Assembly (NCBI GenBank): GCA_964394145.1
Contig: CAYMVL010000034.1
Span: 58,660-122,659 of the forward strand
Length of the DNA stretch: 64,000 bases
Source of the DNA: an uncultured Dehalococcoidales bacterium
GTDB taxonomy: Bacteria; Chloroflexota; Dehalococcoidia; GIF9; AB-539-J10
Reading direction: 5' to 3'
This document shows, in pieces, positions 3,672 through 46,162 of this stretch. Every line of letters begins with the position of its first letter. The stretch's first letter is position 1. The notes below the pieces were generated by a model. The model made no database searches. It saw only the letters and a program-made list of their open reading frames with translations, and was not told where the DNA came from. The position numbers and the translations under genes were made by a program.

Positions 3672-4347
3672 TACCTTCTCCTAGAATGATATCGGCTTTG
3701 TTCACGATTCTTCTTGGTCTAGGAATGGGGCGAAAATTCTTGGGGGGATAATATCGGCGCATCTTGTCCAACTGGCCTAATCTTTCCAACCTTTTGTAAA
3801 TCAGGATCCAGACACAATCCATGTCCTTATTCACCTCACATTTGCCATTCTTGCTACCGGCGCAGGGCCCGTTGAGTATTCCTTTGGGACATCTGGTAAT
3901 AGGGCAAATGCCACCAGTCTCAGCCAATATGCAATCGCCGCAAGCAGAACATCGCTCATCCCAAACACCCCACTCTTTAGACGCACCCATGAAAGATGTA
4001 TTAACCCCGGGCAGGGCAGGCGTATCCGGGAAACGCTCGGCCAGCATCTGCACTCCAACGCCACAGCCGAGAGAAAGGATGGCATCTACCTCACTGACTT
4101 TGTCCTCCAGCACATCCAGAAATTCAAGATCACACTGCCGTTTGATTGTGTATTCTGAAAAGCTATGGGCTTCACTTACACCTCTAGCCTGGGCAACTCT
4201 GAAGGCCCTGTGAAGCAGCGAGACCTCCCTCTCGCCTCCGGCGTTACAGACTGTCGTGCAGGTGCCACAACCAAGGATAAGCACCTTCTCATAAGGGGCG
4301 ATAAGGTGTAGCATTTCCTGTAAAGGTTTTTGCTGTGCCACTATCAA
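3652..4347 (-). CDS. metV: Methylene-THF reductase small subunit MetV-like (MTHFR C-terminal-domain protein, Cys-rich Fe-S/Zn)
   Basis: 231 aa with CGTCTTVCNAGGE and several further CxxC motifs. Overlaps metF. Confidence 0.7.
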   Translation of the reverse strand: MIVAQQKPLQEMLHLIAPYEKVLILGCGTCTTVCNAGGEREVSLLHRAFRVAQARGVSEAHSFSEYTIKRQCDLEFLDVLEDKVSEVDAILSLGCGVGVQMLAERFPDTPALPGVNTSFMGASKEWGVWDERCSACGDCILAETGGICPITRCPKGILNGPCAGSKNGKCEVNKDMDCVWILIYKRLERLGQLDKMRRYYPPKNFRPIPRPRRIVNKADIILGEGNGQIAI

Positions 4348-11831: not shown

Positions 11832-11879
11832 CTATATTCGCCAGTAGTTGCTTTAGGCTGTATTCTATACGGTTGTTAT

Positions 11880-12200
11880 GCTGATAACAATGCTCCAGGC
11901 TGCAAGAATCGCTGTAACATTGAATGATAGTAAGGGACTCAAAGCAGTGAGCAGCAGGAGGTTGGAGAAGGGGCTGATGCACCATTCAGACCGCGGCAAA
12001 GTCAGTACTGCAGTTATAAATATCAGGGCCTCTTAAGGCAGAGGGAAGCAATTGAAGACATAACAGAATATATTGAGATATTTCACAACTGGCAGCGGCG
12101 GCATGTTAAACTGGGATTCGCATCAACTATAGCCCTTGCAGATAAATATTGTGCAGGGCTGGTAGCAGCATGAACGGTTGCGTGTCCATTATTGACATCC
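11880..12200 (+). pseudogene. IS3-family transposase (OrfB / rve integrase core) remnant with frameshift
   Basis: Frame +1 reads ...RRLEKGLMHHSDRGKVSTAV... (IS3 LIHHSDRGSQYTS motif) then stops. Frame +3, about 90 nt downstream, reads IEIFHNWQRRHVKLGF (IS3 IExFYNxxRxHSxLGY motif). It is 5'-truncated at the degV gene. Confidence 0.5.
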
Positions 12201-12750
12201 GACCTCAGTTGCGGCTCACCGGCCAACCTGGTGATTTGCTGTGAGAGCCTGGAAGTAGAGCTCGGCATCATCTCTGCAAACTGATTATTCCTGATTTGAT
12301 TTGCGATTGGTTGGGGTCTGTGCGCAAGAATGAGTCCTTGCTGGTTTGACGACCGAAATTCAGTTCAAGGCGAAAGATGCGAGGCCCAAATGCCAGATGT
12401 CAGGATTTTGCGCAGGGAGTCTCTAAGCTATAGCCGATACGATTGCTTCTGTATCTACGTGAATGGGTAAGCTACTTTTGTGGATTGATGTGATGGTCAG
12501 CTGATGGTTGAAAAGCAAAACGCCCCGAGTAACCTCACTTTTCCAGATAACCCCTTCACTTTCGGTTCCGGCTTACCGCCCTCATGGCTGGGATCCCACG
12601 CACTCTCAGCCTTCGCCTACTTTGTGACCCGGCTTCCCATTTGCCAGATCAAAGCTCTGATTACTCGGGACTTCTAAAGGATACCATATTTCCAGTTTTC
12701 CTGTCAAGTTTTTTTGGTTGTTAATCTTGTACCTGATCCTACACTGAGTC

Positions 12751-23817: not shown

Positions 23818-24483
23818 TTAGCTTATTGCCTCCCTCATTCTCCGTAGCGATTCGTTTATCCCTTCCTTGGCTTTAAAGACGCTGTTCCCCGCTGCCAGAA
23901 CATTAGCTCCGGCTTCTACTATGCTATGCGCATTATCAATATTGATGCCTCCATCAACTTCAAGTTCAATGGCCAGGTTCTTATCATCGAGAATCTTACG
24001 GAGGCGACTTATCTTGCTGAGTGACTCCGCAATAAAAGTCTGCCCTCCAAAGCCAGGATTGACGCTCATCACAAGAATCAAATCCACCTGAGACATGACC
24101 TCGTCTATGGTGCTTAAGGGGGTGGCTGGGTTCAAAGCCACACCCACCTTTATGCCCAGTTCTTTTATAGACTGAATTGTCTTATGCAGGTGGGAGCAGG
24201 CTTCCACATGCACAGTTAGAATATTGGCACCGGAGCTGGCGAACTGAGAGATATAGCAGTCCGGGCGCTCTATCATTAAATGCACATCTAAAGGCAGGTG
24301 AGTCCAGGTCCGTAGCGAAGCCACTACGGAGGCACCAATAGTGATATTGGGCACAAAATGCCCATCCATGACGTCAACGTGGATATAGTCAGCTCCTGCC
24401 CTGGTGGCTTCAGCGACCTGCTCCCCAAGACGACTAAAATCGGCGGAAAGAATTGATGGTGCCAGTTTAACATGCATACCCAT
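23818..24483 (-). CDS. rpe: Ribulose-phosphate 3-epimerase
   Basis: 221 aa; SILSADF, HVDVMDGHFVPN motifs. Confidence 0.9.
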   Translation of the reverse strand: MGMHVKLAPSILSADFSRLGEQVAEATRAGADYIHVDVMDGHFVPNITIGASVVASLRTWTHLPLDVHLMIERPDCYISQFASSGANILTVHVEACSHLHKTIQSIKELGIKVGVALNPATPLSTIDEVMSQVDLILVMSVNPGFGGQTFIAESLSKISRLRKILDDKNLAIELEVDGGINIDNAHSIVEAGANVLAAGNSVFKAKEGINESLRRMREAIS

Positions 24484-33495: not shown

Positions 33496-34356
33496 CTAGC
33501 TGGCGCTAGCCTTTATCTTATTTTCTTGCTTGTGAGCACTCTTCAGATAAAGCTCCTTGGATAGAGCTTCCTCTTCCAAGAAGCGATTATTTCTGGCCAT
33601 AACCAGGTCAAAATTCACCAAGTGTGCGTCGAACATGGGGCCATCAACGCATGCAAACTTGGTCTCACCACCCACCTCCAGCCTGCACGAACCACACATA
33701 CCGGTTCCGTCAACCATGATCATACGCATTGTGACCATTGTAGGTATATTGTAGGCCCTGGTCAGCTCAGCTAGCTTGATGTAGGTTCCAAGGATCCCTC
33801 CTGCAAATACGGCATCCACCTTCCTATCTTCCAGCAACTCTTTTAATACGTCGAGGTAGGTCCCCTTCCTGCCATAAGAACCATCTATCGTCGTTATGTA
33901 GTATTCATCACTGACAGATCTCAGTTCATCCTCTAGATATACCATATCCTTGGATGGGAATGTTTGTATCGAAATTACATGGTTCCCTTTCTCGCGCAAC
34001 TCCTTGCATGCTGCGTAGTTCTCGGCATGCCCGCAGACCAGGTCTGAAGCAAAAACTACATTCCCGTAGAGTTTTGACTCGACAGGAGTCCCCAGAGGAC
34101 CAATCACATTCTCCAATGTATCACCAGCTTTGAGAGTATCAAGCTCCATGCTTGTCTTTCCCAGCTTCTTGATGAACATTGTGATTGTGTCTCCATCTGT
34201 CTTCTGCACGGACATTGGAATCCTCTCTCCCTTTTGGTGCACACGGAAAACCACAAAGTTTCCTGCTTTAAATTTCTTGGCCACCAAAGGCGCCCTCACC
34301 GTTATCGCGTAGTCCTCTGAATTGAGATCCCTTTTGTCTACAATCTCATAACTCAT
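33496..34356 (-). CDS. nfnA: NfnA / PyrK-like ferredoxin-NADP+ reductase subunit (start placed at the internal ATG MSYEIV...; the listed ORF extends to a TTG at 34425)
   Basis: FAD-binding RIPMS, 2Fe-2S CGSCRL...C motifs. AAGGAG RBS 6 nt upstream of the internal ATG. Confidence 0.8.
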   Translation of the reverse strand: MSYEIVDKRDLNSEDYAITVRAPLVAKKFKAGNFVVFRVHQKGERIPMSVQKTDGDTITMFIKKLGKTSMELDTLKAGDTLENVIGPLGTPVESKLYGNVVFASDLVCGHAENYAACKELREKGNHVISIQTFPSKDMVYLEDELRSVSDEYYITTIDGSYGRKGTYLDVLKELLEDRKVDAVFAGGILGTYIKLAELTRAYNIPTMVTMRMIMVDGTGMCGSCRLEVGGETKFACVDGPMFDAHLVNFDLVMARNNRFLEEEALSKELYLKSAHKQENKIKASAS

Positions 34357-35915
34357 ATACTGCTCCTTTTCTATAACTACATACTTAATTGCACTAAGAC
34401 TCTTTGCAGAGCTTACCAGCTTCAATAGTCATTAGTTAGCTTATATCCTCTAATTTTGCGTCCGTATATGTTATCAAATAATTATTGGTGCTTTCAAGTC
34501 TTCAAGGTCCTCTTGTGCGTCTGCCCGCAACCATTTCTAATCCTCCCTTCATGCCCAAGGATGAATCTTGCACCTTCATCAGCACTGAGACCTATAAAGA
34601 AGCCAAGCTCTAATCTATCATTACCCAGTACGATCACTATTGCTCGGAGACGTCTCATAGATGAAAACGGGAAACACCCCTAAGTCGACTTCGGGGGTCT
34701 ATGGCCTTTATCTGTTTCTGCTTTCATTCTGTATTATCTAACACTCTTCCTTGAAGTATACCTTCCAGTAGCCTAACTTGTCTTTCTCACGATGTGCTTT
34801 GTTCATATTCTATCTTGGCCACAATTTTGCTTCATTGCCTTTTGCCTGAGCGCAAGGTCTTCGGGTTGTCTGTGCTAGAGGATAATAAACTGAAATCCAA
34901 CTACTCCGCCCGACATGGTCTATCCTCTATCAGTCAAGGCTGGATTCGAAACAATGACGGCTTGGCGTTTCGTAAAACTCTTCAGGCCCTTTGTTGATGG
35001 ACAACTTCTCCATGGGGCAAATCCCTTCACCTTCACGATTCTGAATGTAAGGTGCGATTCTGATGAAGTGATATTCAACCTCATAGTGAGCCAGCGTCTT
35101 AACTGCAAGCTGGCTAAGCAAAGGGCTGTAGACTTCTTTGCAATGAGCCTTCAGTGATAGCAGGGCAGCGGCATTAGCCGCAACCTTATCAAATACTGTA
35201 ATCCCATGATGCGATTAAGCAGCACTATCAATGTAATCAAGCAAGGGCTGTACGGCTAGTTCTTTGATGAAAAGAGCAATCTGTCTCCATCATATAAGCG
35301 AAGGCTGTCAGCGCTTATTAGAAATCCTTAAATAGAGAACGATTCATCAGAGTCCTTCATACGGCACGAGTGGATACCCTAGTGGCCTATTCCATAAAGG
35401 CAATGGTAACGTGAGATTTCAGGTTCACCAGTTTTGGTCGAGTATCATAAGCCATGGGCGATTCCGAAGCATCGCGGGCTCCCCCAAGCGAGGTTGGTGA
35501 GAGCCCAAAGTGACTTATTTGTTTGGTGTACTACTCTGATCCCCTGAAGTGGCTCTGTGGGAACAGTACTATCTCCATACTTTACCCTTAAGACACTATA
35601 TAATGTCTATACTACCCCTGTTGTCCCTGTTTCAGCTGGCTTAAGATAGCCTATTGAGTCTACCCTTCAAGCCAATTCCATTAACACGTAGGAGCCGCCC
35701 AAATATCCTGCCAAATTGTTTCAGGAGCACACAATGCTAAGAAAATACCGAATTAGCTTGCCTAGCTTTACCAAGTGATGGGAAATTCAACTAGACAGAG
35801 GAACTGAAGGATGCCGGCATTATCAACTATATCGGGGAATGCGTTAGGTCAATTGATCATAACCAGCCACTATCGCTGGCAACTAGACAGAAAAGTACCC
35901 TTCTTACTAAGTGAA

Positions 35916-36122
35916 TCACTCCTCAAGAAGAAAAGTGATCTTCATCTGGACTCGGTACTCGGATATTTTCCCCGTGTCATCGAGTAGTATTTCCTGATTC
36001 CAAATCCACGCAGATTTGACATTCTTAAGAGTTTTTTGGGCACGAGCAATTCCTTTTTTCATTGCGTCATCGAAGCTGATTGGAGAGGATGATTTGACCT
36101 CAGTAGATCTTGAAATAGTCAT
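35916..36122 (-). CDS. Dodecin family flavin-binding protein
   Basis: 68 aa; pattern ...SFDDAMKKGIARAQKTLKNV...YRVQMKITFLLEE resembles dodecin. Confidence 0.6.
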   Translation of the reverse strand: MTISRSTEVKSSSPISFDDAMKKGIARAQKTLKNVKSAWIWNQEILLDDTGKISEYRVQMKITFLLEE

Positions 36123-36592
36123 TGGCGTCTCCTTCCGATATTTATTTGACTGGATTTTGTGTTGTAAAATCCAACAAGCATAATTATAGCACTTCCGTAT
36201 ATGGTTTAGTAGACAAACTAGTTACTGCTTTTACGCCAATAGGTGTGAAACCGTGGTCTTGAAGCCTGGGTTAGCTACCAATATTGTCAGCCAGAAGTTG
36301 TCCATGCTCCGGTAGTTATAAGCTATCCTCTTTATAATTCTGATCCTGTTGTTCTTACCCTGGCAAATCGGTTGTCGAGCATACGTTCCGGCCTACTCGT
36401 CCTCCATTAGTCATGCTTCATCGTCTATCACTACCACGTTCGCCACAAAGCTGTTAGCCTCATTCTGAAAACATAGATGATAGAGCGTAGTCATAATAGG
36501 GTGATGGAGGTGGGCTATCCCGCTACCTTGAACAAACACTCTTTCCACCAGCAATTTGAAACAATCTGTGACTCCATTATAATTACTTATGT

Positions 36593-37159
36593 ATGATGGA
36601 TAAGGAAATAATAACGGCGATTGCCCTGGGAATTGGCTTAGCCGCCAGTTGTGGCTTCAGAGTGTTTGTGCCATTGCTGGTAGCTAGCGTTGCTGCACAT
36701 CTGGGAGTCTTCCCTGCTCAGGAGGGGTTCCTCTGGCTGGCCGGCTGGCCTGCGATAATATCCTTCGGCACGGCTACGGTTTTCGAAATAGTGGCGTATT
36801 ATATCCCCGTTATGGACAATCTGCTGGATAGTATCAGCACACCTCTGGCTGTCGGCGCGGGTACTTTGCTTCTGACTTCCGTTCTTCCCATCGATAATGA
36901 GATGCTCAAATGGGTTAGTGGGTTTATCGTCGGTGGAGGTATAGCTGCAACAGTCCAAGGCGGCACCGTTTTGGCAAGGCTTGCTTCTACAAGCTTAACT
37001 GCGGGAACAGGGAATCCCTTAGTAGCCACAGGGGAACACGCTGCAGCTTTTACTACTTCACTGCTGTCGCTGGTCATTCCGTTTGTGGTTGTCACTGTTC
37101 TGGTGGTGCTCATCATTTTCATTGTCCTTAAATTCAGAAAACGACTCAGGAACCGCTGA
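36593..37159 (+). CDS. DUF4126-like integral membrane protein
   Basis: 188 aa; 4-5 TM helices, basic C-terminal tail KFRKRLRNR. Confidence 0.5.
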   Translation: MMDKEIITAIALGIGLAASCGFRVFVPLLVASVAAHLGVFPAQEGFLWLAGWPAIISFGTATVFEIVAYYIPVMDNLLDSISTPLAVGAGTLLLTSVLPIDNEMLKWVSGFIVGGGIAATVQGGTVLARLASTSLTAGTGNPLVATGEHAAAFTTSLLSLVIPFVVVTVLVVLIIFIVLKFRKRLRNR

Positions 37160-37349
37160 CGATGCACAACGATGAGCATTGGTTACCGACGTTTGATAGG
37201 ACAATGGCGGAAGGAATATAATCAGGTATGTTGACATAGTGCGAAGAATGACCAAGCACTAGCACCTGAGACGATATCGACTGTGCAAGAACTGGTATAG
37301 ACGTCAAAGGTTGCCTGAGATCACAAGATTAGTTCTAGAGGGGTATGAG

Positions 37350-38624
37350 ATGAGAAAGTCAGCATTACTTGTGTTGAAATTGGCGATGTTGGTCGGGCTA
37401 GTATGTTGTAGTCAGGTAGTGTCAAATCAGTTGATAAAGTCGAAAAAACAGCGAAATGCCTGGCCAGCAGCAAATGAAACTGACCTTGCAATGCTGGTTG
37501 CTGGTAATAGTGACTTTGCTTTCGACCTATATAGGACAATACGGCAAACGGGAACTAACCTGTTCTTCTCACCGTACAGTATATCGGAAGCGCTGGCAAT
37601 GGCTTATGCTGGTGCTCGTGGTGATACCGAGAAAGCTATGGTTGAAACTCTTAACTTCAACCTATCACCCGATTGCCTGCACCCGGCATTTAATAGCCTT
37701 GACCTTAGGTTCAAGGAGCGTGGTAAAGGAGCAAAAGGTAAGGACAAAGATGGTTTTAGACTGCATATAGTCAACGCCATCTGGGGACAAAAGGGCTATG
37801 ATTTTCTGGAGGGATTTCTCGACGTTCTTGCCCAGAACTATGGTGCAGGGTTGAGGGTACTGGACTTCATAAATGACACGGAGGAGTCACGGGTCGCTAT
37901 TAACAAATGGGTTAGCGACCAGACTGAGGGAAGAATCAATGGACTGGTTCCAAAGGGGGCGATAGACCCGCTAACACGACTCGTCTTAACCAATGCTGTC
38001 TACTTTAATGCAGCTTGGGAATCCCCCTTCAGTAAGAATTTGACTTCTGACGATACCTTCCATCTAATGGGTGATATTGATATCACTGTTCCCATGATAC
38101 GGCAAACCAAATCCTTCCGCTATACCGAAGGTGATGTTTATGAAGCTATTGAATTACCGTATGATGGGCATGAACTCTCCATGCTTATCCTGCTACCCAA
38201 AGCTGGGCAATTCGATGCCTTCGAAGAACTCTTGAACACGGAGCTTGTTAGGGCAATCACTGGCAAGTTAGAGTTGAATGAAGTGGCGCTGACAATGCCA
38301 AAATTTGAATATGAGTCCAATTTCGGCTTAAAAGAAGCACTCAGGAGGCTCGGCATGAGAGTGGCTTTTGAAGGGGGGGCTGATTTCTCAGGGATGAACG
38401 GTAATCGCGACCTGTTGATACAGGATGTCCTGCATAAAGCTTTTGTCTCCGTAGATGAAGCTGGCACCAAGGCAGCTGCGGCTACCGCAGTGATAATGGG
38501 GATGAAATTTATGCGCGCACTCGCGATCGAACTCAAGGTTGACCGCCCGTTCATCTTCCTTATCCGGGACATACCAACTGATAGCATAATATTTCTGGGA
38601 CGTCTTCTTAATCCGGCAAAATAG
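37350..38624 (+). CDS. Secreted serpin (serine protease inhibitor family) with N-terminal signal peptide; predicted P1 = Lys
   Basis: Signal peptide MRKSALLVLKLAMLVGLVCC preceded by GAGGGG RBS. Serpin core motifs NAVYFNAAWESPF, hinge EAGTKAAAATAV, and FKVDRPFIFLIRD. Confidence 0.85.
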   Translation: MRKSALLVLKLAMLVGLVCCSQVVSNQLIKSKKQRNAWPAANETDLAMLVAGNSDFAFDLYRTIRQTGTNLFFSPYSISEALAMAYAGARGDTEKAMVETLNFNLSPDCLHPAFNSLDLRFKERGKGAKGKDKDGFRLHIVNAIWGQKGYDFLEGFLDVLAQNYGAGLRVLDFINDTEESRVAINKWVSDQTEGRINGLVPKGAIDPLTRLVLTNAVYFNAAWESPFSKNLTSDDTFHLMGDIDITVPMIRQTKSFRYTEGDVYEAIELPYDGHELSMLILLPKAGQFDAFEELLNTELVRAITGKLELNEVALTMPKFEYESNFGLKEALRRLGMRVAFEGGADFSGMNGNRDLLIQDVLHKAFVSVDEAGTKAAAATAVIMGMKFMRALAIELKVDRPFIFLIRDIPTDSIIFLGRLLNPAK

Positions 38625-38663
38625 GGCACAATTCACTCATGAGGTCTCAAAATGAAAATCTGA

Positions 38664-38700
38664 ATATGGAGTGGTTGTATCCGAGTCACTCCATATGATC
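38664..38700. terminator. Hairpin between convergent serpin and C11-peptidase genes (possible bidirectional terminator)
   Basis: ATGGAGTG-(13 nt)-CACTCCAT inverted repeat sits between the two stop codons. Confidence 0.3.
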
Positions 38701-38721
38701 TTAATCGTCGGCTGGCCGTAT

Positions 38722-41184
38722 CTATCTCACGGTGATGCCAGTCAGGGCCTGCTGCTGATTACCGTCCAGGTCTGCGACCACAAAGCCCAGTGCATAATCC
38801 CCCGCGGCGGCGTCCAGCGTCTCCCAGGTAAACATTTGCGCTCCAAATGTCAGCGTGCTCCCGTCTTGAAAAACGGTAGCGCTCACCTGCCCGTTGCTGT
38901 CCAGATCCAGCCATTCTTCACGAACCGTGAACCTATCACCGGCGCTGGGAGTTATCTCGCGTGGAGCACTGGCCTCGCTTTCACCCGTGAAACCAAACAC
39001 TTGACGCATCACTCCATTAATGAAGTACAGGCGGGCTTCAAGATGTTGGCCGCTGTCAGCAAAGGTGTATATCCCATCGACTGTATAGGTAGCCTCTTCG
39101 GCATTGCGCCCGTAATCTTCAGGTTTGAACAGGGCTGGTACTGAAGTAGTCCCATCGCTGATTGCGAAAACCACTGGTTCCCAAACGAATTCCAGTGTGA
39201 AGTCACCCTGACCCCAATCAGGATAATAGACACCATTAACCTGCCGAATTTTAGAACTCTCCAGGTAATCCTGGTCAGCTACGAAGATTGAATTGGATGC
39301 CTGGTCGTAGAAACCCACGAACAAATAGATGTGGCCGATGTTGTCACCGCTTATATCGGCACTCAGCGTCACCGGCTGACCAGGGGCAGCTTCTGTATCG
39401 GAAGCGGCAACTGGAGAGACACTGATGCCACCAGCTGCAGGAGCACGCACGGACCCACTGGCTGGAACTACTGCCCCCGTATCACTGTCTGCGAACTTAC
39501 GACCGGAATAATGATAAGCCAGAAAATCATCCCAGAGAGATTTGCCGGCAAAGCGGCTGGCGATGGCTGTATAGGACTCCGCTCCTGTAATCGAGTTCTG
39601 GTAGAGCTGCGAGTTGGGAAAGTAGATTGCCACACCTGTAGCACCTGGTTTCTGAGGGCCATGCTTTTCGGCAATCACTGCCTGCCTAATAGTGGAGAGC
39701 ACGTCGTCAGCTGCCTGGGTGATTTCAGCATTGCTTGTATTTTGCGTGACTATCTGCAAAAAGTTACCAAGGTCAATGTATGAGGGCGGGACTTGGGAGC
39801 CAAAGACACTCGTAAAGCTCTCAGCATAGCTACGGCTGCCAGCTAGTGTCTTCTGGTCAGCCTTCTGGAAAATGAAAGCCAGGTTATTCAAGCTGCTGTT
39901 CAATATACTAATTTTGGACAGGTCGACTGCCGTCAATGTACTGCTCTGCCCTATCTCACGGGCTAATTGCTGGGGAGAAACATCCGTCGGCTGGCCGAAA
40001 AGGCCTCCCAAGGGAGAACCCTGGCTAAGGAAATCTGCCCTTGCGCTGCTATCCAGAATAATCTGATCCTCCTCAATATAGCCCTGCACGATCAACCTGG
40101 AGAACTCTGCCCCATCCATGTCGGGGTTCTGTGTCAACGCCTTCAGAAAATCGGTATAAGCCCAACCCAAGGACGGTTCCACCTCCTGAGAGGCGACCGC
40201 ATAACGGGCGTGTGGCTCCAGAGCAGTAAAAACCTCCACCTGGCCCATTAAGCAAGCATCGAGCCCGATCATTTCAAATTTATCTAACCCTGTATTAGCC
40301 CGAATCTGGTCAAGTGCATCGTCCATCTCATTCAGGTAAAGCATATCGCCCAGGCGAGCCTGCATAGGAATAGTGGTGTCCACACTACCTTTAGGGATGG
40401 AGTCAGTCCAGCCGCCAGGCCAGCCCATCCCATGGTCAGAGAGTATCAGAACATGTTTATCGGCCGGATAGGACTTAATGGCCCAGGAAGCGAAGTCAAT
40501 CAGAGTCTGGCTGGAGGACATGTTGAGTTCACCCAAATTAGCTACTTGCTGCGAAGCTAATCGCCCCAGGTTATCATCCTGACTGATTAGAAAGCATCTG
40601 GTATCTGTCCAGTCGCCGTCTCCGCTGTAAGCTCCATCGTACCGGTCAACCTGCGCCACTATTTTAACCCGATCCGACGCACCTGCTTTTTCGGCTTCGT
40701 TCAAATCAAGATAGATATCTTTTTCCAGTATATTGTCATCGGCATCCTGGTAGAGCATAACTAACCAGGTCTGGTCGGTCCTGGTCGAAGTCTCGCTGGT
40801 TATTTCAGGGTAGTTCGTGACAAATGGGGCAGCCGAGTCCAGACTCGAGATCTGGCCAGTGTCCGAGCCAGTCGAGGGGAGCGTAGGCAGGGAATGCCCG
40901 TCTTCAGGGCTGGGAGTTCCGCAGCTCCGCACTCCAAAAATGATAACAGCTATAATAATCACGATAATAATAGAAACAACTGACATGCAACCCTTGCTTC
41001 CACGAGTAGGTAGCCGACTCCTGATGCTAGATCCTGAGCTAGCACCCATTCCAGCCCTTGCATCTCCGACCTGCCTGCGCTGGGGCGCCTCAGCGCGTTC
41101 GCGCCCACCCTGCGGTGCAGCTTCAGGTTTGCGGCGACGCCGAGCTTGAATTATGCGCTTCTTCCGATCCCCGTTGGAAGTCAT
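38722..41184 (-). CDS. Clostripain-family (peptidase C11) cysteine protease, membrane-anchored, with large C-terminal extension
   Basis: Arg-rich cytoplasmic N-terminus, single TM VVSIIIVIIIAVIIFGV, catalytic His (ILSDHGMGW) and Cys (MIGLDACLMG) in C11 order. 820 aa. Confidence 0.8.
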   Translation of the reverse strand: MTSNGDRKKRIIQARRRRKPEAAPQGGRERAEAPQRRQVGDARAGMGASSGSSIRSRLPTRGSKGCMSVVSIIIVIIIAVIIFGVRSCGTPSPEDGHSLPTLPSTGSDTGQISSLDSAAPFVTNYPEITSETSTRTDQTWLVMLYQDADDNILEKDIYLDLNEAEKAGASDRVKIVAQVDRYDGAYSGDGDWTDTRCFLISQDDNLGRLASQQVANLGELNMSSSQTLIDFASWAIKSYPADKHVLILSDHGMGWPGGWTDSIPKGSVDTTIPMQARLGDMLYLNEMDDALDQIRANTGLDKFEMIGLDACLMGQVEVFTALEPHARYAVASQEVEPSLGWAYTDFLKALTQNPDMDGAEFSRLIVQGYIEEDQIILDSSARADFLSQGSPLGGLFGQPTDVSPQQLAREIGQSSTLTAVDLSKISILNSSLNNLAFIFQKADQKTLAGSRSYAESFTSVFGSQVPPSYIDLGNFLQIVTQNTSNAEITQAADDVLSTIRQAVIAEKHGPQKPGATGVAIYFPNSQLYQNSITGAESYTAIASRFAGKSLWDDFLAYHYSGRKFADSDTGAVVPASGSVRAPAAGGISVSPVAASDTEAAPGQPVTLSADISGDNIGHIYLFVGFYDQASNSIFVADQDYLESSKIRQVNGVYYPDWGQGDFTLEFVWEPVVFAISDGTTSVPALFKPEDYGRNAEEATYTVDGIYTFADSGQHLEARLYFINGVMRQVFGFTGESEASAPREITPSAGDRFTVREEWLDLDSNGQVSATVFQDGSTLTFGAQMFTWETLDAAAGDYALGFVVADLDGNQQQALTGITVR

Positions 41185-42293
41185 ACGGGACCACCAATCC
41201 TTTTTGAGGATTCTCTGTTTCCGTACTGCGTTAAGCCTGAGGCAGCCGGTTCAGATGGTGTAAACAAAGCGTTAAATACTTGTTTCATTTGCTTGTCTGC
41301 ATCGATGAGTCGACATATCAACGTTCTAACCTATAGAAGAGCAACCTTGAGCTTCCCAGGGCAAAAGATAAGCAACTATGCTGTACATAGAGCTCCTTTC
41401 AAGTGTGGTTGATGAGATATTATATAGGTTTATATGAAAATTTCCCATACTAAGTGATGAAGTGGTGGCGTTTTTTGATGAGAGTAGCTCCGGTGTTAAG
41501 AGCTAAGTCCACTATTCATAATGGGTCAGACACTAGGGTCTCCACTATACATGCATTGCCAATTTCTGCTGGTGTTGAAATTGATAGCTACTCACCCCAT
41601 ATCGGTTCACAAAAAGACTGTACCTTAGCTTTCCGTCGCTGCTTATGAAGACTCAATTGCTGGTCCTATTCCGATTTTCAGCAGTAATGTGGCTGCATAT
41701 TTACTGACGAGTCGTCGAACTGAGAGTTAGGATACTTGAGAGAAAACCTTGCTTACGGAAGGAGCCAGAGCGGGCGAGAGAAGACGGTAGCAGGGACCAA
41801 TCCATGCTCTTTTTGGTCTCGTGCCTGCGTTGAGCCGTGTTCTCGTTATGGTGCGGGGAAGGCTCTTATTAGAGCGCCGTCAAGTGTGACTTATTCGTAT
41901 GGGCTGATAACAAGTTGACCGTGGTAGCGCTTTGGCTGACTTACGGCTCAGTTTGAGAGAAGAGGGAAGGGTGATGCTAGCCGTTTGTGTGCTTGTGGAG
42001 TCTATGTGTCACACAGTAGCCTGAAGCCGGCAATTGCTTCAGGGTTTAACTGAAGAAAGAGCAGACCCAGATAAAAGCTCCCATCTATCCTCCAATCAGG
42101 CCCAGTCTTCTTTCAGAGAGGTAAGGTTTCCCTATTTACCTGATTTTACTCAGCTGCGGATGATGGCCAATCCTCAAGTCTACCTCAATAGTCAATGGCA
42201 CAACCGATGAGCATCAAAAGGGCGAAAAATAAGACTTCGCTGGTATTTGCTGCAATATAGTAGGCAGTGCCGGTATGACGAAGCGGACTCTAT

Positions 42294-42659
42294 TTAGGAT
42301 TCTAGTTTACCGGCTTTGTCTTCCTGCCGTATTTCTTCATAGCTATCCAAAATTCTAGCTGCAATAGTGTCAATGTCTTCAAAGCCCCCAGCTTCGTAGT
42401 ACCTGAAATAGCAGTTTTCGGGCGGCTCTGGCTCATGTAATCGTATTAATAGTCTCTTGTGCAGATTTGAAATCTTTCCCAAACGCCAGAGTTTTTTCCC
42501 GCCGGGGCTGACATACGCTATTTCATAGACCCCCGGAGCCTCGGGCACGCTATTAACGTTTTCTTTTGTGAATTTAATCCAGGTCTTCTCTGCTCCCACT
42601 AAAGTTGCCCTCACAAAGGCCTTACATGATGGAAGGTAACCCTCACCATGTTGCTGCAT
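42294..42659 (-). CDS. Small GIY-YIG (URI) nuclease-domain protein
   Basis: PGVYEIAY...GKKLWRLGKISNLHKRLLIRLHEPE fits GIY-(10-11)-YIG...R...H...E. Confidence 0.5.
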   Translation of the reverse strand: MQQHGEGYLPSCKAFVRATLVGAEKTWIKFTKENVNSVPEAPGVYEIAYVSPGGKKLWRLGKISNLHKRLLIRLHEPEPPENCYFRYYEAGGFEDIDTIAARILDSYEEIRQEDKAGKLES

Positions 42660-42980
42660 TATAGCATAGTTGTTTTACCATTATGGTAACCCGTGATAGT
42701 AATTCAGTATTGATGATAAGTATGCCACGAGTGTTACCGAATATCTCAGCGTCCACATCCTGCCTAACTCAATAGCTCAGATTCTGCTGGGTGGACCATT
42801 TTTCTTCATGGATATGCAGACGGTCTTCATCAATTCCACCCTCTATTGACCAAATGGAGAAATTTTGGTAGCATAGTATAAGGCAGCTGACCTTTAAGGC
42901 AGTGAGCTTGAAATTAGAGTAGACGAGTTTTCCGCTTGGATCGGTAACGACTGAGACGGATTAACAGGGTGTGATGCGAT

Positions 42981-43016
42981 GCCCTCTCGGTTGTGCCGAG
43001 AGGGTTTTTTGTTGTT
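42981..43016 (+). terminator. Rho-independent terminator/attenuator in the leader upstream of the pan operon
   Basis: Perfect 9-bp stem CCCTCTCGG/CCGAGAGGG with 5-nt loop, followed by TTTTTTGTTGTT. No annotated + strand ORF upstream. Confidence 0.6.
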
Positions 43017-43168
43017 ATGTACTGTGTCATAAGTGAAGTTCATACAATTGGAGTAGGACGGCATACCGGTAGAAAAGGAACGACGGTCTTTATGGCAATT
43101 CGCCCTGAGCAATGGGCCGTAGCTTGGGTCGATTTCAGTGGCTTGGTAGCAGCAAAGCATCTGGTGTG

Positions 43169-44026
43169 ATGATGAAAGTTGGCTTTATTGGCGCTGGAAC
43201 GGTGGGCACGGCATTAGCAGTCAGGCTTTACAGAGCAGGGTGTGCTGTAGTCTCTGTGTCCAGCCGAAGTCCACACTCGGCACACAAATTGGCTGAGCTG
43301 GTGAGTAATTGTGAAGTCTACCAGAATGGCCAGGGGGTAGCAGATACCGCTGAACTGGTTTTCATCACTACTCCTGATGATGTTATAGCCAAGGTTGTGG
43401 GTGAGATTGGGTGGCATGCAGGACAGGATGCCATCCACTGTAGTGGTGCGCATTCTATTGATATTCTGGAGCCGGCGAGGCAATCAGGGGCCAATGTGGG
43501 TTCTTTCCACCCACTCCAGACATTTGCGAGCTATGAACAGGCTATGGAGAATTTGCCCGGGTCTGCCTTTGCGTTAGAGGCTGAGGAACCTCTATTAACC
43601 AAGTTGAAGCAACTAGCTCATATTTTAGGTGGGAGCTACATAGAGCTTAAGCCAGGGGACAAGGTGCTGTATCATGCTGCAGCCGTTTTTGCGTCTAACT
43701 ATCTGGTGGCTTTGGTCAAGTTAGCCGTGGATTTATGGCAGTATTTCGGGGTGTCACCCGAAGAGGCACTTAAGGCTTTGATGCCTCTGCTCAAAGGTAC
43801 GATAAGCAATATTGAGAGTATTGGTTTACCTCGTTGTCTCACAGGGCCTGTAGCTCGCGGGGATTTGAGTACAATAAGCAAGCATTTGAGTGGCCTTAAA
43901 GCTAGAGACTCTGGTTTATTGACCACTTATAGAGAATTGGGTCTTCAGACTATTCCTATTGCTCTGGCTAAAGGCGGAATCGATGCCCGGAGGGCAACCA
44001 TGTTGGAGGCGTTGCTTAAGCAATAG
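43169..44026 (+). CDS. Rossmann-fold / DUF2520 oxidoreductase (putative ketopantoate reductase, PanG-like)
   Basis: MKVGFIGAGTVGTALA dinucleotide fold. First gene of the panD-panB-panC operon. Start placed at the internal Met (the listed ORF starts at 43112). Confidence 0.65.
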   Translation: MMKVGFIGAGTVGTALAVRLYRAGCAVVSVSSRSPHSAHKLAELVSNCEVYQNGQGVADTAELVFITTPDDVIAKVVGEIGWHAGQDAIHCSGAHSIDILEPARQSGANVGSFHPLQTFASYEQAMENLPGSAFALEAEEPLLTKLKQLAHILGGSYIELKPGDKVLYHAAAVFASNYLVALVKLAVDLWQYFGVSPEEALKALMPLLKGTISNIESIGLPRCLTGPVARGDLSTISKHLSGLKARDSGLLTTYRELGLQTIPIALAKGGIDARRATMLEALLKQ

Positions 44027-44042
44027 ATAAAGGAGAGAGAAA

Positions 44043-44444
44043 ATGAGAACCATGTTAAAGAGCAAGATTCATCGAGCTCGAGTTACACAGGTTAACCTAG
44101 GTTATGAAGGTAGCATTACCATTGACAAATCTCTCCTGGAGGCCAGTGATATCTTGCCGTTTGAACGAGTAGAAGTGCTAAACATCAATAACGGCGCCAG
44201 GTTCAGTACTTACGCTATAGAGGGAGAGGACAGTTCAGGCGTTATCTGCGTCAATGGTGCTGCTGCCAGGCTGGTTGCAAAAGGGGATATAGTGATCATC
44301 CTTTCTTACTGCCAGATTGCGGATGATGAGGCGATGGTTGTCACACCAACCAGAGTTTATGTGGATAGCAGAAACAGGATTATTGAACCCCCGTCTATAG
44401 GTCCTATTTCTGGAAGTCAAAGAGATGTAGTGAGTGCGAGGTAG
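44043..44444 (+). CDS. panD: Aspartate 1-decarboxylase
   Basis: [11 protein letters not shown]...L.YEGSItID. Pyruvoyl processing site G-S. Confidence 0.9.
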
Positions 44445-45294
44445 TAATGCCATGAGGGTTACCATCGCTGAGATAAAGGAAATGAAGCGGAAAGGGGACA
44501 AAATCCCCATGCTCACTGCTTACGATTATGTCACGGCTAAAATAATCGATGAAGCTAATGTACCTTTGATCCTGGTTGGAGATAGCCTTGGTATGGTGAT
44601 GTTGGGCTACGAATCAACTATACCCGTGACTATTGATGAGATGTTACATCATACTAAAGCTGTGGTGAGAGGTGCTAGGAAGGGTCTGATAGTAGGTGAC
44701 ATGCCTTTTATGACCTATCATATGAGTATTGCCGAGACTCTACGCAACGCGGCGCGTTTGATCCAGGAGGGAGGGGCTCAGGCTGTGAAATTGGAGGGGG
44801 GTGAAGTTGTTGCTGAGGAAATAAGGCACCTTACAGAATGTGGCATACCTGTTATGGGGCATATTGGCTTTACCCCGCAATCGATACATCAATTGGGTGG
44901 ATTCAAAGTACAGGGAAGAGCACTAGAGGAAGCTAAGAAATTGTTGCAAGATGCCCTTATTTTGGAGCAGGCTGGCGTTTTTGCTACCGTTTTGGAGTGT
45001 ACTCCAGCACCTCTTTCTAAGCTGATTACCCGGAAGCTAGCTGTTCCCACAATAGGCATCGGTGCAGGACCCTATTGTGATGGACAAGTCCAGGTAATCA
45101 GCGATATTCTGGGGCTTTATACCGATTTTGTCCCCAAGCATTCCAAGCAATATGCTAAGTTGGCGGGGGAAATAGAGGCTGCCGTGGCTGGCTATGTATC
45201 TGAAGTTAAGACGCAAAGCTTCCCCACCATGAAACAGAGCTATGCTATGGATGAGAGTCTCCTTGAGTCTCTTGAGACCCTATCTTCTTCTTAG
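44434..45294 (+). CDS. panB: 3-methyl-2-oxobutanoate hydroxymethyltransferase
   Basis: Family motifs [23 protein letters not shown]. Confidence 0.9.
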
Positions 45295-45328
45295 TAGTAA
45301 GTGGGGAAGATTAGGCTGGTAGTGAGAA

Positions 45329-46162
45329 ATGCAGGTGGTCAGGGCTGTCTCTGAGATGGGGGAACTGAGGAGACAACTCAGCAGCTCCGTTGGCTTTGTA
45401 CCTACCATGGGCTATCTTCACGAAGGACATCTGTCTCTGGTGAGACAAGCCAAAGCAGAAAATTCTAGCGTTGTAGTTAGCATTTATGTGAATCCTGCCC
45501 AGTTTGGTGCAAGCGAAGATCTTGTAGCTTACCCACGAGACTTAAACCGTGACCTGGCACTCTTAGAAGAGGAAGAAGCAGACATAGTGTTTGTTCCTCC
45601 TGATGAAGAAATGTATCCGTCCGGGTTCAGTACTTGGGTGGATGTGGAAAGAGTAAGTGAGTGTCTTGAGGGGGAGTCGCGGCCGGGCCATTTCAGAGGA
45701 GTGGCAACGATTTGTGTTAAGTTGTTCAATATTGCCCAACCGGCCAGGGCGTACTTTGGACAGAAGGATGCTCAGCAAGTAATAGTCATAAAGCGGATGG
45801 TAAGCGACCTCAATATGAACCTTGACATTGTGGTTGTTCCTACAGTCAGGGAGAGCGACGGCCTAGCCATTAGCAGCCGTAATATCTACTTACGGCCTGA
45901 CGAACGCCAGTCGGCGGCGGTTCTCTTTGGTGCCTTATCTTTAGCCAAGGAGTTATGGCAGGATGGGGAGAGGGATGCGGACATAATTCGCCGGCAAATG
46001 ATATCGCACATCCAGAAGGAGCCACTGGCACGGATTGACTATGTGAGTATCGCTGATAGTACTACTCTGGAAGAACTGGAACATATTGAGTATATGGCAC
46101 TGGTATCACTGGCCGTTCGTATTGGCAGAGCTAGGTTAATAGATAACATAATCCTGCGGTAA
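45329..46162 (+). CDS. panC: Pantoate--beta-alanine ligase
   Basis: VPTMGYLHEGHLSL HIGH-like motif. Confidence 0.9.
   Translation: MQVVRAVSEMGELRRQLSSSVGFVPTMGYLHEGHLSLVRQAKAENSSVVVSIYVNPAQFGASEDLVAYPRDLNRDLALLEEEEADIVFVPPDEEMYPSGFSTWVDVERVSECLEGESRPGHFRGVATICVKLFNIAQPARAYFGQKDAQQVIVIKRMVSDLNMNLDIVVVPTVRESDGLAISSRNIYLRPDERQSAAVLFGALSLAKELWQDGERDADIIRRQMISHIQKEPLARIDYVSIADSTTLEELEHIEYMALVSLAVRIGRARLIDNIILR

Follow-up and report, generated by a model that had tools for sequence, protein, structure and literature searches.

A gene-poor stretch separating nfnA from the pan operon in an uncultured, Dehalococcoidia-like member of the Chloroflexota: pseudogenes, an ISL3 relic and a pan motif leader

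The pan motif, which consists of tandem hairpins with bulged A residues, has been described in three phyla, the Chloroflexota among them, where it precedes panB, panC and aspartate decarboxylase operons, and a dimeric protein partner has been suggested for it (Weinberg et al. 2010, PMC2864571). A leader carrying this motif lies at one end of the DNA that is the subject of this study, a stretch of about 8.7 kb (34426-43111) between nfnA and the pan operon of an uncultured Dehalococcoidales bacterium. The window, that is the whole stretch of DNA analysed here, comprises 64,000 nucleotides. Other described systems with which the 8.7-kb stretch can be compared are genomic islands and islets, and the scars left by pseudogene decay and by deletions at insertion sequences (IS). 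A reading made from the sequence alone had regarded it as an old horizontally acquired or decaying island. Our analysis indicates that it is probably a lineage-specific mosaic in an uncultured, Dehalococcoidia-like member of the Chloroflexota from Mono Lake sediment, and that it is gene-poor for ordinary reasons (Table 1).

The low coding density on which the sequence-only reading was built was readily reproduced. A greedy, non-overlapping set of open reading frames (ORFs), each of at least 100 aa, covered 54.2% of 34426-43111 as compared to 88.8% of the rest of the window, and the coding share of the stretch rose to ∼56% when the 68-aa dodecin gene was added; the G+C content of the whole window is ∼49%. 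Likewise, the two ORF-free stretches of more than 1 kb were found at 34426-35915 (1490 bp; gap 1) and 41185-42293 (1109 bp; gap 2), the first of them extending to 36592 if dodecin is not counted, and smaller ORF-free gaps lie at 36123-36592 (470 bp) and 42660-43111 (452 bp). Four of the five genes that had been called confident (dodecin, DUF4126, serpin and C11 peptidase) scored above the Pfam gathering threshold, while the fifth, named 'GIY-YIG', could not be confirmed under that name. Orientation is indeed mixed (-, +, +, -, - for dodecin, DUF4126, serpin, C11 and a 121-aa ORF), and the stretch is flanked by the nfnA-like and nfnB genes on the minus strand and by DUF2520-panD-panB-panC on the plus strand, as had been described. 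The sequence stems from a metagenome-assembled genome (MAG), and such a source could by itself account for low density through a chimeric contig, collapsed repeats or a binning error. However, 20 contigs from Mono Lake and other samples (JGI, Logan, NCBI), obtained with different assemblers, carry the same sequence at 99.8-100% identity and span each of the junctions. Because these independent contigs agree across the junctions, an assembly or binning artefact is refuted, and we assign it virtually no probability.

Gene decay beside nfnA and an ISL3 relic beside dodecin

It had been suggested that the gaps might hide pseudogenes, and three remnants were indeed uncovered: a TM1506/DUF1893 pseudogene, an N-terminal LarA-like remnant and the 3′ relic of an ISL3 transposase gene. 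The first of these was detected by a six-frame Pfam search (PF08973, E=8e-21, 74.5 bits against a gathering score of 27, profile positions 22-114 of 130). When the product was rebuilt, it matched intact Chloroflexota DUF1893 proteins of 131-140 aa with E=4.6e-47, at 68% identity and 86-92% coverage. The pseudogene retains an ATG at 35360 and its terminal TGA at 34932-34930, and it keeps a residual coding signal. Between these landmarks, tblastn and the sequence itself revealed an in-frame TAA at 35330-35328, a frameshift at ∼35258-35254 and a second in-frame TAA at 35217-35215. Hence there is no uninterrupted TM1506/DUF1893 frame of ∼130-140 codons, which is broken by two TAA codons and one frameshift, and this copy is a pseudogene rather than a functional member of the family. 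The 80-aa plus-strand ORF that gene callers place at 34915-35157 overlaps it on the opposite strand.

Upstream of the TM1506 pseudogene, a 477-aa Lar_N protein of a related locus, L094 (GCA_975966375.1), matched the window by tblastn in two frames, with residues 5-40 at 35594-35487 and residues 37-70 at 35497-35396 (47-53% identity, joint E=3e-9). The remnant has one frame change at ∼35497-35487 and its start codon is gone. The match stops 36 nt short of the TM1506 ATG, which indicates that codons ∼71-477, or ∼1.2 kb of larA, were deleted. The Lar_N domain (PF09861) is represented here by this single-protein match over residues 5-70 in two frames, the six-frame Pfam search being silent. In L094, an intact TM1506 gene directly follows the Lar_N gene, in the same gene order and orientation as here and with 66-68% identity in TM1506. 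While TM1506 is thus intact in L094, both genes of the pair are dead in the present genome, and the pairing is not universal, as TM1506 follows an HpaB-family gene in the relatives L095-L097. These observations indicate that an old larA-like/TM1506 operon beside nfnA is probably decaying in place. It has lost a start codon and ∼1.2 kb by internal deletion, and it carries two premature stops as well as one frame change or more in each of the two remnants.

The nfnA gene itself starts at the ATG at 34356 (286 aa) and not at the TTG at 34425 (309 aa). The 286-aa form is the one used by the gene callers and by an exact-match protein (P0121). Between these two codons, at 34387, five population contigs show a 1-nt deletion polymorphism, which fits non-coding sequence and shows that the 286-aa form, and not the 309-aa ORF with the TTG start, is the real gene. 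The nfnA gene of locus L104 is 83% identical to that of the window at the aa level and 79% at the DNA level. Beyond the leader that is conserved with L104, the 441 bp at 34489-34929 had no Pfam, NCBIfam or Rfam match, no coding signal and a folding z of ∼0, and they showed no similarity to the L104 DNA 5′ of its nfnA. No Pfam, NCBIfam or Rfam match and no coding or folding signal was obtained for 35595-35915 either. A folding signal at 35410-35559 on the minus strand, inside the larA remnant, had z=-4.4 with 30 shuffles and was dismissed when 200 shuffles gave only z=-1.85. In L104, the content 5′ of nfnA differs from that of the window: it includes ∼600 bp of non-coding DNA and a degraded second copy, 46 codons long, of the N-terminal part of the HdrD-like Fe-S oxidoreductase gene next to it (656-796 and 2-499 of L104). 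This decayed fragment shows that gene decay beside nfnA is not unique to the present genome.

The ISL3 relic on the other side of dodecin consists of the last ∼44 transposase codons (36368 to 36234), a stop codon at 36233-36231 and a presumed IS end of 52 nt (36230-36179). The Pfam model DDE_Tnp_ISL3 matched weakly (profile 215-239 of 240, E=0.099) and the NCBIfam model transpos_ISL3 more clearly (342-369 of 370, E=0.0019). In addition, a phmmer search with the 53-aa stop-free segment against 1.84 billion representatives returned 24 matches at E<=1e-3, those with the best full-length identity having E=9.6e-11 to 2e-9 at 61-68% identity. All ten matches that were scanned with Pfam carry DDE_Tnp_ISL3, with the aligned part at or near their C-terminus, and the last ∼44 residues of the relic are 61-71% identical to the C-terminal part of DDE_Tnp_ISL3 proteins. 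Conversely, tblastn of ISL3 homologues back onto the window gave E=6e-16 at 36362-36237. A complete element was not found: nothing was detectable upstream of residue ∼-44 and there is no matching inverted repeat in the window. A tblastn search of plasmids gave no match, the fragment being too short a query for that database. A 15-nt inverted match (34474-34488/36135-36149) was rejected as a pair of IS ends since, relative to the transposase relic, its first arm is on the wrong side. The claim that IS remnants occur elsewhere in the window was only partly borne out, by an IS3-like fragment with a marginal score. This fragment, at ∼11934-12170 on the plus strand (best part 12036-12125), is stop-free, resembles the C-terminus of IS3-family transposases (NCBIfam transpos_IS3, 336-364 of 369, E=0.0034) and sits within a 919-bp ORF-free gap at 11832-12750.

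What the relic marks became apparent from the nearest relative, L016, whose dodecin and C11 are 91% and 74% identical to those of the window at the aa level. There, C11 and dodecin are separated by 0.6 kb, with neither serpin nor DUF4126 between them, and the DNA homology to the window breaks off at 36178 next to dodecin and at 38741 next to C11. The dodecin-side breakpoint lies 52 nt from the transposase stop codon. We therefore regard the 2.56 kb at 36179-38740, which hold the IS relic, DUF4126 and serpin, as an indel bounded by an IS end. In the proposed order of events, an ISL3-family IS would have inserted 55 bp 5′ of dodecin before being cut down to its last ∼190 bp. An IS-associated rearrangement most likely introduced DUF4126 and serpin, which lie on the IS side of the junction, or led to their retention. 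On the far side of dodecin the two loci also differ: L016 has two convergent dodecin paralogues with their 3′ ends facing each other (3674-3880 and 4042-4266 of L016), and the window has one dodecin followed by the pseudogene remnants.

The pan operon leader and the gap upstream of the C11 gene

The possibility that the gaps hide a non-coding RNA was confirmed for the DNA preceding the pan operon. The pan motif (RF01749) was found at 42882-42963, where it scored 37.4 bits over the full length of the model (1-92), the gathering score being 36.2. Both tandem hairpins are present in the cmscan alignment, the first with two non-canonical pairs, and the minimum free energy fold of 42875-43020 (z=-3.3) contains hairpins at 42881-42909 and 42927-42965 together with an intrinsic terminator. 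This terminator (42981-43005) has a G+C-rich stem of 11 bp followed by a T run, and the leader begins with a promoter-like site at 42846-42874 that has an extended -10 TG. The motif occupies the same position upstream of DUF2520-panD-panB-panC in L110 and L113, with DNA similarity to L110 over 42933-43010, and the operon itself is conserved in the Dehalococcoidia-type MAGs L108 and L110-L113. The leader thus shares with RF01749 the tandem hairpins, a score that passes gathering, the position relative to panD, panB and panC, and the phylum; it differs in that its score is just above gathering and its first hairpin is divergent. Moreover, it is longer, with 205 nt from the motif to the start codon versus ∼80-90 nt in L110 and L113, and includes a strong intrinsic terminator. 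The leader is one more example of an element already described, and the attached terminator suggests attenuation. The promoter, the tandem-hairpin motif and the terminator would together form a long cis-regulatory leader that is presumably an attenuator.

No such element emerged from gap 2, which separates the C11 gene from the 121-aa ORF. Six-frame searches of Pfam, NCBIfam and 5.8 billion proteins returned nothing; neither did Rfam, even when the isolated stretch was searched at E<=10, nor blastn against plasmid and phage DNA, nor comparison with the related loci (160-170 or more; blastx to their ORFs, and blastn). The codon-signal scan was flat, and folding on both strands (z -1.7 to +2.1) was no different from shuffles. 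Two candidate origins were also rejected. One was a gene conserved 5′ of C11 and here reduced to a remnant, as the upstream neighbours of more than 60 homologues are mutually unrelated. The other was the missing part of larA in inverted orientation, to which three short inverted matches between gaps 1 and 2 had pointed, as tblastn with full-length LarA was empty there. Among the C11 homologues with a readable upstream neighbour (∼60), the upstream gap is at most 597 bp; gap 2 is about twice that, and is for this reason regarded as specific to the lineage.

Conceivably, an unassigned stretch, chiefly gap 2, could encode a lineage-specific functional element such as a small RNA, small proteins, or a regulatory RNA or long 5′ leader of the C11 gene. 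Gap 2 is flanked by two co-oriented genes and is at least 99.9% identical across all population contigs, with one single-nucleotide polymorphism (SNP) at 42029; on its minus strand, weak promoter-like sites occur at 41402-41375 and a hairpin resembling a terminator follows the 121-aa gene (42240-42222), and gene callers predict ORFs of 56-76 aa in it. However, the near-identity of the contigs reflects one young population and not constraint, there is no Rfam match at E<=10, no codon signal and no protein homologue, the folding energy equals that of shuffles on both strands, and the regions upstream of other C11 genes are short and unrelated. Taking both sides together, we consider it quite unlikely that such an element is encoded, and very unlikely that gap 2 in particular is a functional non-coding element of this lineage, for instance a long leader or RNA controlling a membrane-anchored C11 peptidase. 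From the negative evidence we infer instead that gap 2 is decayed or spacer DNA with no retained function, as would be the rest of the ∼2 kb without a match, of which it is the chief part.

The 121-aa ORF next to gap 2 is the one that had been named 'GIY-YIG', an assignment that did not hold: no such domain model matched, and Pfam returned only DUF7508 with 23.2 bits, below the cut-off of 26. No NCBIfam match and no sequence match in the PDB was found, and an AlphaFold2 (AF2) model with a predicted local distance difference test (pLDDT) value of 50 was unusable. Nevertheless, the ORF has a coding signal of 0.1-0.2 and is predicted in all population contigs, and it is probably a real gene.

Table 1. 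Features between nfnA and the pan operon, with window coordinates, strand and supporting evidence.
Feature	Coordinates	Strand	Evidence
nfnA leader/promoter region	34357..34488	-	DNA homology to L104 reaches 34488, then ends
Non-coding DNA, 441 bp, nfnA leader to TM1506 pseudogene	34489..34929	.	no family match
TM1506/DUF1893 pseudogene	34930..35360	-	Pfam PF08973; tblastn lesions
LarA-like (Lar_N) remnant, first ∼70 codons	35396..35594	-	tblastn with L094 Lar_N protein
Non-coding DNA, 321 bp, dodecin stop to larA remnant	35595..35915	.	no match
Dodecin gene, 68 aa, intact	35916..36122	-	Pfam PF07311, E=3e-18
Dodecin leader, conserved with L016	36123..36178	-	DNA alignment from dodecin ATG, ends at 36178
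ISL3-family IS relic	36179..36368	-	transposase 3′ end and presumed IS end
DUF4126 membrane protein gene	36593..37159	+	Pfam PF13548, E=5e-45
Serpin gene, 424 aa from ATG 37350 (alternative start 37311)	37350..38624	+	Pfam PF00079, E=7e-112
Clostripain-family (C11) peptidase gene, 820 aa	38722..41184	-	Pfam PF03415, E=2e-34
1.1-kb non-coding stretch, 121-aa gene to C11 start (gap 2)	41185..42293	.	no match in any test
121-aa ORF, probable gene	42294..42659	-	sub-threshold DUF7508; coding signal
pan operon leader	42846..43014	+	promoter-like site, pan motif, intrinsic terminator
DUF2520/Rossmann oxidoreductase-panD-panB-panC operon (flank)	43169..46162	+	Pfam

The serpin-bearing segment, synteny and composition

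Within the indel, DUF4126 is preceded by a near-consensus promoter-like site at 36556-36583 and serpin by one at 37193-37222, each scoring 11/12 in the promoter scan. Of the 26 polymorphic sites that were seen among 19 near-identical population contigs over ∼31 kb covered, 13 lie within ∼560 bp comprising the leader and the 5′ part of the serpin gene (37326-37884), which suggests allelic recombination or diversifying selection on the N-terminal region. An N-terminal hydrophobic stretch suggests a signal peptide in the serpin, and another one a membrane anchor in the C11 peptidase. The two genes are convergent with their stops 97 bp apart (38625-38721), and their products could be an inhibitor-protease pair. 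Of 380 C11 relatives in metagenomes, we kept 80 with 50-74% identity; the gene contexts of these 80 loci are unrelated, and no serpin lies near C11 in any of them. In L020 (10136-13962) and L021 (3796-12205), where C11 is 70% identical, it stands beside homologues of genes at 15.4-25.4 kb of the window, which indicates rearrangement between lineages.

A deviation in codon usage had been named among the checks, and it was found for some of the genes. The synonymous-codon score of serpin was below all 1500 length-matched core-gene samples, and its GC content of 46.5% lies at the 0.9th percentile. Dodecin has a low GC content (41%), and its synonymous codons are used atypically, at the 0.7th percentile of core samples matched for length; the 121-aa gene is likewise atypical in composition. 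DUF4126 and the TM1506 pseudogene are native in composition. For C11 the length-matched null was uninformative, while the coding-signal scan gave it a native appearance.

Synteny had been named as a further check, in the form of the question whether nfnA and panD abut elsewhere. The pan motif match pointed to the Chloroflexota as the source, and a genome scan based on a PanB alignment had, as the best among the matches listed, Chloroflexota, Dehalococcoidales and Dehalococcoidia MAGs with 73-59% PanB identity. In no related genome found does nfnA abut the pan operon. In the closest GTDB genomes among the matches listed, nothing of the window at 24-55 kb is syntenic besides the pan operon, and this includes the downstream ino1-purA-dap block. 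As the loss of synteny extends to either side of this operon, the test cannot mark the stretch as an insertion. The only relative found with nfn and pan genes near each other is the Dehalococcoidia MAG L113, where ∼3.7 kb separate panC from nfnA/nfnB-like genes downstream, which precede a T-box leader (13923-17955 of L113). A genome scan with NfnA alone gave no match. NfnA homologues of 60-68% identity include archaeal ones, and the one context obtained (P0127) is an unrelated MBH-type operon that is useless for synteny. Exact-protein look-ups retrieved the same population only, at 99.8% identity or more. Elsewhere in the window, the Mono Lake sediment contig MLSed_10000861 (L098) is without the 59 bp at 24403-24461, an indel polymorphism close to where the ORF 23818-24483 has its 5′ end.

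With these data, the alternative of a classical genomic island, which would have entered between nfnA and the pan operon in one piece by horizontal transfer, could be weighed. The stretch does contain accessory-type genes (serpin, C11 peptidase, DUF4126, dodecin and the orphan 121-aa gene), none of which, in the relatives found, neighbours nfnA or the pan operon. Three of them, namely serpin, dodecin and the 121-aa gene, have an atypical composition, and an IS relic lies inside the stretch. On the other hand, no tRNA and no bounding direct or inverted repeats were found for 34426-43111, and no recombinase or integrase among the five genes or in the six-frame scans of the gaps. C11 (by the coding-signal scan), DUF4126 and the TM1506 pseudogene are native in composition, and the dodecin-C11 linkage also occurs in L016, so that at least part of the block predates the IS event. 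The loss of synteny is no mark of an island either, being equally evident on the 'core' side of the pan operon. A single inserted island is therefore unlikely in our judgement. Of the earlier proposal of an old acquired or decaying island, decay is well supported; an island between otherwise abutting core genes is not. Only the ISL3-DUF4126-serpin segment can plausibly be regarded as horizontally acquired, because 36179-38740 is absent from L016, is bounded by an IS end and contains a compositionally atypical serpin, and this segment is the only demonstrable indel, by comparison with L016 alone. That the stretch is variable is also evident from the nearest relatives, which differ beside nfnA (L104) and between C11 and dodecin (L016).

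Several points weigh against the mosaic that we favour. With L016 as the single outgroup, gain of serpin and DUF4126 cannot be polarised against their loss, and the compositional tests are low-powered, codon bias being weak (mean 0.04 bit per codon). The LarA-like remnant would be one 66-residue match in two pieces (E=3e-9) that Pfam did not see. The six-frame search of gap 2 missed short ORFs that were called in sister contigs, which makes its sensitivity for short products uncertain. Finally, no relative at 80-95% DNA identity was found, and the absence of function in ∼2 kb is a matter of negative evidence only.

Comparison with islands and decay scars

The region is real but ordinary: it is variable and partly decayed, and its elements are of known kinds. 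Its import beyond annotation is small, as a patch of local gene decay and an IS scar in a free-living sediment Chloroflexota. For annotation, the start of nfnA, the TM1506 pseudogene beneath the 80-aa ORF of the opposite strand and the unconfirmed 'GIY-YIG' are to be corrected. The leader adds one more pan motif, with a terminator that fits attenuation for a motif without a known ligand or partner. Furthermore, a serpin beside a clostripain-like protease, with a cluster of SNPs at its 5′ end, offers a small lead for research on bacterial serpins.

With genomic islands and islets the stretch shares accessory content, variable presence, an IS relic and some atypical genes. It differs from them in having no integrase, tRNA target or flanking repeats and a mixed composition, and in that its flanks abut in no relative found. 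The likeness to pseudogene decay and to deletion scars at IS extends to premature stops, frameshifts, an internal deletion, AT-enriched DNA that cannot be assigned, and a transposase gene cut down to its 3′ end where synteny breaks. Here, however, these features occur in a free-living sediment Chloroflexota and not in a host-restricted organism, and the decay is local, the rest of the window being 89% coding.

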